Shown: one piece after another, positions 43,232 through 50,969 of the stretch
How positions within the stretch are numbered: the stretch's first letter is position 1
How the letters are laid out: each line of letters starts with the position of its first letter
NCBI RefSeq assembly: GCF_001545115.1
Contig: NZ_FCNU01000022.1
Span: 88,544-152,543, forward strand
Source of the DNA: Candidatus Protochlamydia phocaeensis
GTDB lineage: Bacteria; Chlamydiota; Chlamydiia; Chlamydiales; Parachlamydiaceae
DNA: 64,000 nt
Direction: 5' to 3'
The notes under the pieces: model-generated
What the model saw: the letters and a program-made list of their open reading frames with translations, nothing else
The model's database searches: none
Told to the model about the DNA's origin: nothing
Translations under genes and position numbers: made by a program

Positions 43232-46075
43232 TCAACCAGTTAATTCCAATCCAGCTTCTGAAGAATAAGAGGAAGGAGAGGTTGCGGTTGAGGTGGTCGT
43301 GGGATTGACCGGTCCTTCAAGAGAAGAAGGGCTTTCAATAATTGCGCGAATTCTTTCTTGCACATGAGTCGTATCAGCTGAAAGAATCAGTTCACACCAT
43401 GCCTTTTTTTCTACGCGCAATTTATTCATTTTATCATCTACGACAAACGTCTCGCGGTGCATGCGGTAAACTTTTACACGTTTTGTTTGTCCAATGCGGT
43501 GAAGACGGGCTATGCATTGATCATCATCATTTGGATTCCACCAAGGGTCAACGATAATGAGATGATTGGCAGCCGTACAGTTCCAGCCCACGCTGCCTAA
43601 TTTACGTCCTGCGACAAGAACGGGCGGACCCTCAGGGTGTTGGAATTCTTCAATCATGGCCGAACGTGCGTTCTTATCGACTTTTCCATAAAGGAACTTG
43701 ACTTTTTGCATGATAGGGATGAGAGCCGATGCTTTCAATCCTTCGCAAATGAGATGACCCATTTTCTCAAAGTTAGTAAAAATCAAAATTTTATCATCTG
43801 GAGTGCGGTCTAAAATATTTTTAACCAAATGGATAATAGCCTGTAATTTACCCGGTTCTGAATAATTGACCGGTATACTTTGAATGTGTTGATGAAGAAG
43901 GACGCTTTTTGTACTCAAATAACGCATGAGTCTCTCTGATTCAAGCAAAAGAGCGGGATGATTTGCAACTTGCTGCAAATAAAGATAATCAATTAAATTT
44001 AAGCTTGCTTCATCGGCCTCTTTTTCTATTTTTGAACTAAATAGCGATAGGGCTCCTCTTTCAGTTGCTTGGTCAAGTGCCTGTGGATTGGTGTCTATAA
44101 TTGTTTGAATAAGACGCAACTGAATTTCTGATAACGAATAAGAAATTCTCTCTTCTTTCTCGATAGGAAGAAGCGGCTGAATAGGGCGGCCTCTGGACTG
44201 CATAATTGCCGTTTGTGCTTTGAACTCTTCAAAATGATTCTGGCGGCGGAGTAAAAAAGGCTTAGCCAATATTTCAATCAACTGAATAACATGTTCTTCT
44301 ATAAGCTTAAGGGATACGTGAGAAGGGATTTTACCCCCATTGTTCTGAGCTTGCAACAAGAGTTTTCTCAATTCATCCTTAGCGGGTTTCATGACAGCTT
44401 TTTCAAATTTCCCAATAGTAGGATAAGTATTGGGGTTCAGCATGGCATTCAATCGATAAAGCTCAGGCAAATTATTAGGCATAGGCGTACCGGTCAAAGC
44501 TATGAAGCCGTGCCCTGGACCTTGCGCTTGCTGGCGTAAACGAGTAATTACCTTTTCAGAAGTTTTCGTATTTAAGAAAGTATGAAATTCATCTAATAAG
44601 ATCAGATCCCATTCTTGATTAAAGGGAAATTTTGCCCCCTCTTTAGATGCTGGAGAGTTTAAGCGCAGCTTCTGATGAGATATTAAGTTAATTTGATTCA
44701 AAGAATGATCTTGGTTCCCTTCTATGATATCAATGTGACTTTTCAATCCAGGGCAATGGAAGTTTAATTCTCTTTGCCAATTGGCTATCAGATTGGCTGG
44801 ACAGGAAATCAAAATGCGGGCGGCTTTCCCTTGCTCATTTTTTTCGTTGATCACCGCTTGAACAAGGGCAATGGATTGAATGGTTTTTCCTAAACCCATG
44901 CCATCCGCTAAACAGCCTCCTATGCCAAATTTATAAAAAATTTCCATCCACTTATATCCGCGCCATTGATAAGGCATAAGATCGCTCTGCATTCCTTCTG
45001 GCTTGGGTGGAAATGTTCCTCCTGCGAATGATTCACACATTTTCTCGTATACCTTGTCTAACTCTTCAATTAAGGGCAATACAAGGCGCAATACCTTCTG
45101 AATATTTTCTCTTGCCTCTTCATAGACTGGAATTTGATTAGCCGATCGATGAGAAAAAGCTTGGGTCATCTGAGTAGATAGATGAATAAACGCAGGAGCT
45201 GCTGAGCTGGAGATCTTTTGAGAAGAGGTAGTTATTTTCCTAGGACGCGCGCATGGCATTTCTTTAAAAGATGCTGATGAAGGTATAAATGTAGGAAAAG
45301 TAGGTGGAGGAGTTACCCTAAAGGGAGGCCTTCCTGTTGAAGGAAGAGGAGCGAAAGAATGGCTTTGGCCGAAAGCGCCATTTTGAGGCAGTTGTGGAGT
45401 AAAAGGAACAGGAGTCGATCCAAAGGGGGAATTTTCCACCGAAGGAAGAGGGGCAAAAGGATAGTATTGATCGAAAGAGTCATTTTGAGGCAGGTGTGGA
45501 TTAAAAGGAACAGGGGCTGACCCAAAGGGGGAATTTTCCGCCGAAGGCAGAGGAGCAAAAGGATAATAGTGGGCGGAAGAGCCATTTTGATGAGGGTGTG
45601 GATTAAAAGGTGCAGAGGGTTGCTCTGTTTCAATGGACACCCGCTTGGTTAAAGGCAGCCTACCATCTGTCTGCGTGAATTTTCTTTTAGATAGGCTTGT
45701 TGATCCAGGAAGTGGCTTACTGTTCATTATCGAACAGCCTGAATTGGTTTCTCTTCCCGAATGCGTTTGATCTGTTAAAGGGAAATCGCACTCCCCTAAA
45801 TCAGGAAATAAAAGATCTAACCATTGGCTGGGATCGAATTTCTTTAAGAAAGGAAATTCATCCTCTAGCGATAGACTTTCTTGCTCGCTGCAATCAATAA
45901 CCGCTTTCCACCAAGGAACGACAGGGGAAGGTTGATGATTAGCTGCCCCGGATTCTTCTTGCGGTTGAGAGTCTTGATGGGGAACTTCTTGAGAAGCAGA
46001 TAAAGGAGGTTCAGCCCCCATTCCAAAATGATTGATTCCATATCTGTTAAAAGGATTATTGTTTGTTAAGTTCAT
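43232..46075 (-). CDS. SNF2/SWI2-family ATPase (helicase-like) with a proline-rich, tandem-repeat N-terminus.
   Basis: The DEXDc motif LADGMGLGKT (~nt 44890-44920), DEFH and the helicase-C region FTNFEKM…VAGRKLGSVGWNCTAANHLIIVDPWWNP are present. The N-terminal 300 aa is P/F/N/S-rich. Confidence 0.85.
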   Translation of the reverse strand: MNLTNNNPFNRYGINHFGMGAEPPLSASQEVPHQDSQPQEESGAANHQPSPVVPWWKAVIDCSEQESLSLEDEFPFLKKFDPSQWLDLLFPDLGECDFPLTDQTHSGRETNSGCSIMNSKPLPGSTSLSKRKFTQTDGRLPLTKRVSIETEQPSAPFNPHPHQNGSSAHYYPFAPLPSAENSPFGSAPVPFNPHLPQNDSFDQYYPFAPLPSVENSPFGSTPVPFTPQLPQNGAFGQSHSFAPLPSTGRPPFRVTPPPTFPTFIPSSASFKEMPCARPRKITTSSQKISSSAAPAFIHLSTQMTQAFSHRSANQIPVYEEARENIQKVLRLVLPLIEELDKVYEKMCESFAGGTFPPKPEGMQSDLMPYQWRGYKWMEIFYKFGIGGCLADGMGLGKTIQSIALVQAVINEKNEQGKAARILISCPANLIANWQRELNFHCPGLKSHIDIIEGNQDHSLNQINLISHQKLRLNSPASKEGAKFPFNQEWDLILLDEFHTFLNTKTSEKVITRLRQQAQGPGHGFIALTGTPMPNNLPELYRLNAMLNPNTYPTIGKFEKAVMKPAKDELRKLLLQAQNNGGKIPSHVSLKLIEEHVIQLIEILAKPFLLRRQNHFEEFKAQTAIMQSRGRPIQPLLPIEKEERISYSLSEIQLRLIQTIIDTNPQALDQATERGALSLFSSKIEKEADEASLNLIDYLYLQQVANHPALLLESERLMRYLSTKSVLLHQHIQSIPVNYSEPGKLQAIIHLVKNILDRTPDDKILIFTNFEKMGHLICEGLKASALIPIMQKVKFLYGKVDKNARSAMIEEFQHPEGPPVLVAGRKLGSVGWNCTAANHLIIVDPWWNPNDDDQCIARLHRIGQTKRVKVYRMHRETFVVDDKMNKLRVEKKAWCELILSADTTHVQERIRAIIESPSSLEGPVNPTTTSTATSPSSYSSEAGLELTG
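45290..45640. repeat. Three tandem ~100-bp coding repeats inside the SNF2 gene.
   Basis: The protein repeats are PFNPH(L/P)PQN(D/G)SF(D/G)QYYPFAPLPS(A/V)ENSPFGS(A/T)PV, three times. A spurious alternative-frame ORF (45313-45633) mirrors the repeat. Confidence 0.8.

Positions 46076-50969: not shown

Follow-up and report, generated by a model that had tools for sequence, protein, structure and literature searches.

Divergent SNF2 ATPase and helicase-nuclease genes in Candidatus Protochlamydia phocaeensis: probably a coincidental neighbourhood of two accessory genes

Two genes that are transcribed away from each other from a single AT-rich spacer raise the question of whether their products work together. 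The case considered here lies in a stretch of 64,000 nucleotides from Candidatus Protochlamydia phocaeensis (contig NZ_FCNU01000022.1, positions 88,544 to 152,543; the whole stretch is called the window below), in which the gene of an SNF2-family ATPase on the minus strand stands head-to-head with the gene of a helicase-nuclease on the plus strand. The initial annotation had entertained two explanations, namely a co-regulated two-component DNA-surveillance module and a mere coincidental neighbourhood. We favour the latter, with a probability of roughly 0.85: the comparison of sequences suggests two independently inherited accessory genes, divergent by coincidence, which would not form a system. 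This reading is preferred because the relatives of neither gene carry the other as a neighbour. The two genes are the following:

43232..46075, minus strand: SNF2-family ATPase gene, 947 amino acids, ATG start, of an accessory clade associated with Protochlamydia (open reading frame (ORF) list, Pfam)
46479..50969, plus strand: gene of a stand-alone Upf1-like superfamily 1 (SF1) helicase with a Vsr-like (MTES_1575) endonuclease, 1496 amino acids, ATG start (ORF list, Pfam, homologues)

The arrangement itself was confirmed, since both ORFs lie exactly as initially placed, on either side of one spacer of 403 base pairs (bp). Each product is identical to an NCBI-annotated protein of Candidatus Protochlamydia phocaeensis (100% identity, equal length), and the start codons and the length of the spacer therefore agree with the public annotation. 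The chlamydial origin assumed in the initial annotation is right. The SNF2 identity of the minus-strand gene was likewise borne out by Pfam, with SNF2-rel_dom (117.7 bits) covering residues 369-708 and Helicase_C covering residues 749-862, both above the gathering scores. The catalytic motifs are intact in the SNF2 protein and the helicase-nuclease alike. The GC content at third codon positions (GC3) is unlike between the genes, being 0.35 in the SNF2 gene, similar to the adjoining F-box and orphan genes, and 0.43 in the helicase-nuclease gene, similar to core genes.

Conservation of the pair was found in neither direction. None of the five SNF2-clade contexts (44-61% identity) holds a helicase-nuclease, also when the family hidden Markov model (HMM) is used, and none of the 83 helicase-nuclease contexts holds an SNF2 gene of this clade. 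With no pairing in either set, the co-regulated module as first proposed is not upheld, and synteny of the pair in Chlamydiae and other phyla is absent from the relatives of both genes.

The SNF2 protein belongs to a small clade. A word-indexed search returned seven relatives, which share 44-61% identity with it in the C-terminal two-thirds; beyond these, identity falls to about 30%, and no named chlamydial protein besides the query itself is among the top matches. A phmmer search with the SNF2 motor domain, exhaustive over 1.84 billion cluster representatives, gave about eight full-length relatives (422-750 bits) and three fragmentary ones, followed by a drop to 197 bits or less. Synteny of the clade was read from five genomic contexts (P0002 to P0006). 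Three of these (P0002, P0003, P0004) share the order YkuD-accA-ABC transporter-SNF2; in P0005 (L002) the SNF2 gene has a carbonic anhydrase gene on one side and F-box-like genes on the other, and in P0006 it comes after dnaX. The insertions behind accA and the ABC transporter gene are located as follows:

L001 1624-8030: SNF2 insertion after YkuD-accA-ABC
L003 5859-12358: SNF2 insertion after YkuD-accA-ABC
L187 6970-10892: SNF2 insertion after YkuD-accA-ABC

The SNF2-clade contigs are Protochlamydia-like. Both P. phocaeensis and P. naegleriophila have an AccA that is 84% identical to the one of L001, and the accA products of the P0002 and P0004 contigs are among the matches of the same AccA search. 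In the complete genome of P. naegleriophila there is no SNF2 gene at the site, the next gene after YkuD-accA-ABC being a convergent one for an epimerase, and in P. phocaeensis accA and the SNF2 gene are on different contigs. The SNF2 gene is therefore accessory and patchy: it represents a rare clade of about ten sequence clusters, unevenly distributed within the genus and found at variable locations. We also observe that this core locus displays a presence/absence polymorphism, the SNF2 gene standing after YkuD-accA-ABC in three uncultured Protochlamydia-like genomes and not in P. naegleriophila.

It follows that the gene is not the universally conserved chlamydial SNF2 orthologue that the initial annotation had considered. 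A phylum-conserved orthologue was rejected on the approximately ten clade clusters of the exhaustive search, on the fall from 422 to 197 bits and on the gap in P. naegleriophila. CT555 of C. trachomatis is of the conserved chlamydial SNF2 type. The latter is annotated as a 1199-residue ATP-dependent helicase (PMC6686042). The initial annotation had set against the module the picture of a universal orthologue with variable neighbours and without a helicase-nuclease in relatives; the neighbours do vary and the helicase-nuclease is absent from them, but the gene is no universal orthologue. An origin of the SNF2 gene from giant viruses or phages was also dropped, viral collections being without a close relative; IMG/VR contained none for the SNF2 protein of the window. 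When metagenomes were scanned with the alignment of the SNF2 clade, matches to the generic motif I pattern dominated, and the only relatives returned were at 25-30% identity.

The helicase-nuclease presents a very different distribution, together with an architecture of its own. Pfam recognises AAA_11 at residues 365-482, AAA_12 at residues 1142-1317 and MTES_1575 at residues 1359-1451 (102.4 bits), all above cut-offs, and the protein can be divided into the following parts:

46479..47498, plus strand: family-specific N-terminal domain, about residues 1-340, fold not recognised
47571..50429, plus strand: helicase core, with Walker A GPPGAGKT at residue 385 and Walker B DEASQ at residue 1070
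50553..50831, plus strand: C-terminal MTES_1575 / DUF559 Vsr-like PD-(D/E)xK endonuclease domain, with IECDGD at residue 1398

The N-terminal domain is confidently folded and has no solved relative, and about 560 uncharacterised residues (residues 483-1040) are inserted into the helicase core and split it. The N-terminal 360 residues and the 560-residue insertion are specific to the family. Anantharaman et al. (PMC3710099) were the first to define the Vsr-like nuclease MTES_1575. Homologues that match over the full length, at 40-67% identity, are present in Estrella lausannensis, Negativicutes, Nitrospirota, Ferrovum, Chlorobiaceae and many metagenomes. When one genome per species was scanned, at least 460 relatives were confirmed, and 80 loci were retrieved; these come from Acidobacteriota, Bacillota, Planctomycetota, Actinomycetota, Pseudomonadota, Verrucomicrobiota, Chloroflexota, Fusobacteriota and others. 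Carriage on plasmids is occasional, as in a 50-kb Fusobacteria plasmid bearing a relative at 97% coverage, and about 15 near-full-length copies lie in predicted viral or proviral contigs; the INPHARED phage genomes contain no homologue. This spread across phyla, the plasmid carriage, the viral and proviral copies and the variability of the neighbours suggest that the family is a widespread, stand-alone and horizontally spread single-gene element. In literature searches on ProA, Hhe, MTES_1575 and chlamydial SNF2 effectors, we found no description of the helicase-nuclease family or of the pair.

The neighbourhoods of the family are heterogeneous. No recurrent partner was found in the 80 loci, the best neighbour cluster being an ABC transporter present in seven, and no Pfam family accounts for more than three of the 119 immediate neighbours. 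The orthologue of Estrella lausannensis (62% identity) lies among genes for NERD, DUF4357 and Schlafen-type helicase proteins, with no SNF2 gene beside it. No SNF2 gene was found near the relative P0123 (67% identity), nor within 9 kb downstream of P0127 (53% identity), nor in the 19 IMG/VR loci that contain the family. SNF2-type genes, as detected by the SNF2 HMM, do occur within 10 kb of the helicase-nuclease in six of the 80 loci, and they are of several kinds. The DUF3670 type accounts for two, at a distance of 2-4 kb. In a metagenome-assembled genome of Anaerolineae (L068 390-14941), a full-length HmaA (1685 bits) lies about 5 kb away, and in Virgibacillus litoralis (L052 6592-14197) a full-length DrmD (1118 bits) stands immediately upstream; the remaining two are DrmD-like, giving partial DrmD matches in L076 and L020, the latter cut by the contig end. 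Those that could be assigned, the full-length DrmD and HmaA, are parts of other defence systems, in keeping with co-location in a defence island. None of the six is of the window's clade, and none is both divergent and adjacent. As a reverse control, 80 generic bacterial SNF2 loci (856 kb), those of the 25-30% identity relatives from the metagenome scan, contained no member of the helicase-nuclease family. We note beside these results that the orthologue of Estrella, a chlamydia-related bacterium, stands in an apparent defence island (L005 345-10601; CWGJ01000010.1) which includes a Schlafen group-3-like helicase, and that six small co-directional orphan ORFs without a Pfam match precede P0123, the closest of the relatives (L166 326-3739), and may be part of a mobile element.

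The region between the two genes had been described as a shared AT-rich control region. Its features are:

46076..46478, no strand: AT-rich divergent intergenic region, 403 bp, 24.8% GC (composition, promoter scan)
46209->46182, minus strand: candidate promoter for the SNF2 gene (consensus scan)
46326->46354, plus strand: candidate promoter for the helicase-nuclease gene (consensus scan)

The window holds seven divergent intergenic regions of 91-479 bp and 23.5-36.8% GC, and this spacer falls within both ranges. Because it is like the other divergent spacers of the window, its status as a special control region was set aside as improbable. The two promoter-like sites, which are consensus matches, are separate and back-to-back, about 117 bp apart, and such sites are not enriched in the spacer (27, against 20.1 +/- 5.0 in shuffles). 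An Rfam search of the spacer gave no credible match, with none near the threshold; no convincing small ORF was detected in it, and its repeats are AT-rich and of low complexity only. Each gene thus probably has its own promoter inside an ordinary AT-rich spacer, as far as consensus matches indicate. An inverted repeat of 20 nucleotides (46110-46129 / 46175-46194), composed of A and T only, was also observed, with 90% complementarity and a spacing of 45 nucleotides; it is unique within the window, and one arm lies over the -10-like hexamer of the SNF2 gene and the other in the putative leader, but its low complexity makes its significance doubtful. By a rough, uncomputed estimate, a genome of about 2,500 genes, a few dozen of them from the helicase superfamily, would hold about 0.5 adjacent helicase pairs by chance, and nothing in the divergent arrangement exceeds chance expectation.

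The likeness of both proteins to components of known defence systems is confined to parts of each. The helicase-nuclease had been called Hhe-like, and the description holds for its C-terminal helicase and nuclease, which resemble Hhe, ProA and PDC-S37. As in Hhe, which acts against phages as a single protein (NF042953; PADLOC Hhe), an SF1 helicase of AAA_11 and AAA_12 and a C-terminal MTES_1575 domain are joined in one polypeptide, with a match over residues 1033-1459. However, the score is 159.8 bits for a cut-off of 2000, and Pfam finds neither the Hhe-type DUF4011 N-terminal domain nor a DUF3320 tail; membership in Hhe was rejected on the score and the missing DUF4011. ProA, also an anti-phage protein (NF058533), is among the best matches in the defence libraries (189 bits, residues 696-1457), but its cut-off is 1500 bits and only the C-terminal half of the helicase-nuclease aligns, so that membership was rejected here too; a literature search found no paper describing ProA. 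The PADLOC candidate PDC-S37 matches at 186 bits over residues 1022-1458, the C-terminal third only. Mokosh (MkoA/MkoC) was rejected since the helicase core alone matches (125-129 bits); Pfam detects no PLD domain in the helicase-nuclease or its neighbours. The closest solved cores are those of Sen1, Upf1, IGHMBP2 and DNA2, with which the RecA-like motifs alone align; these helicases, of RNA or DNA, are eukaryotic and carry no Vsr-like nuclease. The sequence comparisons thus place the helicase-nuclease close to Hhe and ProA in architecture and in neither family.

For the SNF2 protein, the initial annotation had pointed to DrmD of DISARM. The analogy amounts to a common SNF2 motor fold (59-68 bits) and fails on score: the cut-offs are 950 bits for NF038318 and 610 for NF038317, and the SNF2 protein reaches 68.5 and 59 respectively; for scale, the Virgibacillus DrmD beside a member of the helicase-nuclease family reaches 1118 bits over its full length. 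No drmA, drmB (DUF1998), drmC (PLD) or methylase gene was found by Pfam and PADLOC at 35.7-63.8 kb of the window. The top PADLOC matches are ZorD of Zorya (186 bits) and DpdE of Dpd (152 bits), both at the motor domain only. Membership was rejected for ZorD (NCBIfam, 91.5 against 1500 bits, with no Mrr-like nuclease domain) and for DpdE (NCBIfam, 75 against 500 bits), and Pfam and PADLOC reveal no zorA, zorB, zorC or dpd genes near the SNF2 gene. Nearest outside the clade are the DUF3670-type SNF2 helicases (SCO1167/SCO6262, NF058637), at about 27-30% identity and 192.9 bits; their cut-off is 1200, and in place of DUF3670 the SNF2 protein of the window has a disordered N-terminus of 296 residues.

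These results allow the rival explanations to be weighed. A species-specific two-gene surveillance module, newly joined in P. phocaeensis and co-regulated from the spacer, in which for instance the SNF2 protein would be a sensor or remodeller and the helicase-nuclease the effector, could draw on the head-to-head arrangement around a single spacer, on the intact nucleic-acid motors of both proteins and on the SNF2-type genes near six of the 80 family members, three of which are directly adjacent and co-directional. We regard it as very unlikely: the pair is conserved in neither direction, the adjacent SNF2 genes elsewhere match DrmD (fully in L052, partially in L076 and L020) and not the window's clade, the helicase-nuclease family is overwhelmingly solitary, the SNF2 protein of the window lies far under every defence equivalog cut-off, and the candidate promoters are separate. 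Somewhat less improbable, though still distinctly unlikely, is the co-location of two separate anti-mobile-element genes in a variable defence island (about 42-56 kb) without their forming one system. The relatives of the helicase-nuclease are defence-like (PDC-S37, ProA, Hhe, Mko), its homologues sometimes adjoin DISARM, Hma, methylase, Mrr and SLATT genes, the Estrella orthologue stands beside NERD and Schlafen-helicase genes, and the SNF2 core matches ZorD and DpdE at the level of the motor domain. Yet there is no other PADLOC match among the genes at 42-56 kb; the genes around the pair, for an Inc-like membrane protein, an F-box protein and orphans, have the look of host interaction; in relatives, the SNF2-clade gene comes behind housekeeping ones (accA-ABC, dnaX); the SNF2 protein comes without a nuclease domain and without partner genes; and the region has neither a tRNA gene nor an integrase.

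Several points weigh against our preference for a coincidental neighbourhood of two independently inherited genes. Just five SNF2-clade contexts are available, and that of P0002 includes a convergent neighbour of 784 residues whose content was not read. The two genes may be co-regulated in this one genome, and a newly assembled, species-specific partnership would escape comparative genomics. Moreover, 7.5% of the helicase-nuclease loci have an SNF2-type gene within 10 kb, compared with about 1% in a naive, rough estimate; this excess fits clustering in defence islands, yet shows some affinity between the two types of gene. The Virgibacillus and Anaerolineae loci indicate that, in some phyla, defence islands are home to the helicase-nuclease family. 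Under the coincidental neighbourhood that we prefer, the helicase-nuclease would most likely act alone in nucleic-acid surveillance or against mobile elements, ATP-driven translocation by the helicase delivering or licensing the fused nuclease. The SNF2 protein would be a lineage-restricted accessory translocase with a disordered, fast-evolving N-terminus and no partner genes.

The structure of the SNF2 protein leads to a further possibility, which does not depend on the pair. Its folded part and its variable part are distributed as follows:

43325..45187, minus strand: folded SNF2 motor, residues 297-917, with motifs I GLGKT, II DEFH, III TGTP and VI RLHRIGQ intact (AlphaFold2)
45188..46075, minus strand: hypervariable, Pro-rich N-terminal 296 residues, predicted disordered (AlphaFold2, predicted local distance difference test (pLDDT) <50)
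45339..45610, minus strand: tandem repeat of a 102-bp unit, in frame with the gene, 2.7 copies, 83% matches (Tandem Repeats Finder)

The nearest solved relative of the motor is the Sulfolobus SNF2 core 1z63 (158 bits). A C-terminal tail of 30 residues is likewise predicted to be disordered (AlphaFold2 pLDDT <50). A Pfam search of the N-terminal 296 residues gave no match, and neither a nuclease domain (Pfam) nor partner genes (PADLOC at the locus) were found. The 102-bp repeat encodes a Pro-rich unit of 34 residues within the N-terminus. Across the clade, the disordered and hypervariable stretch comprises the first 150-310 residues, and the N-termini are unalignable except for one short basic cluster, which nearly every member keeps and behind which acidic residues stand. 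The protein of the window carries the basic patch SKRKF...TKR, and versions in the clade include KKRK, KRKK, PAKRVKTD/PNKRVKQEE and KRRR. The strict pattern K[KR]x[KR] is present in five of eight members, compared with 1-3% of composition-matched shuffles; two further members have KRER with PNKRVKQEE in one and TKRDYK in the other. The basic cluster with its acidic residues resembles eukaryotic nuclear localisation signals (NLS). We therefore raise the unlikely but conceivable reading that the SNF2 protein is a secreted "nucleomodulin", which Protochlamydia would deliver into the amoeba that it inhabits and which would act there on the chromatin of the host. It is suggested by the patchy, Protochlamydia-restricted distribution of the clade, the disordered N-terminus, the NLS-like patch and the Inc-like and F-box neighbours. 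To our knowledge, and within a limited literature search, a bacterial SNF2 effector in the host nucleus has no known precedent.

The remaining genes of the window that bear on this setting are:

42219-42728, minus strand: orphan gene of 169 amino acids directly downstream of the SNF2 gene, Inc-like membrane protein
52124-52999, minus strand: eukaryote-like F-box protein gene (Pfam F-box, 43 bits), about 6 kb from the SNF2 gene
37069-38331 and 38335-39669, minus strand: two tandem argG (argininosuccinate synthase) paralogues, 3 bp apart
35739-37085: argH, after the argG pair
39566-41768: amino-acid ABC transporter operon, beside the arg genes

The 169-residue orphan has two closely spaced hydrophobic helices (about residues 66-113) in the bilobed arrangement that characterises chlamydial inclusion-membrane (Inc) proteins; its sole match, SseD, is weak and sub-threshold. 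The F-box gene lies within an AT-rich stretch of orphan genes (51107-56200) and is of a kind typical of the effector repertoires of amoeba symbionts; F-box-like genes also adjoin the SNF2 relative P0005. The arg and amino-acid ABC transporter genes border the region at one end, and genes for ADH, AKR and transketolase at the other.

Had the pair proved to be a conserved module, a new defence system with two motors would have come to light in an obligate intracellular bacterium; on the present evidence the pair is not to be carried forward as a system. The two genes deserve attention separately. The helicase-nuclease reaches the cut-off of none of the named defence families tested, and its large family is a reasonable candidate for experimental defence screening. 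A bacterial SNF2 remodeller acting in the host nucleus would, if true, be a new effector class, and as a possible host-directed effector on chromatin the SNF2 clade, with the NLS-like patch that it carries, is a candidate that can be tested cheaply.

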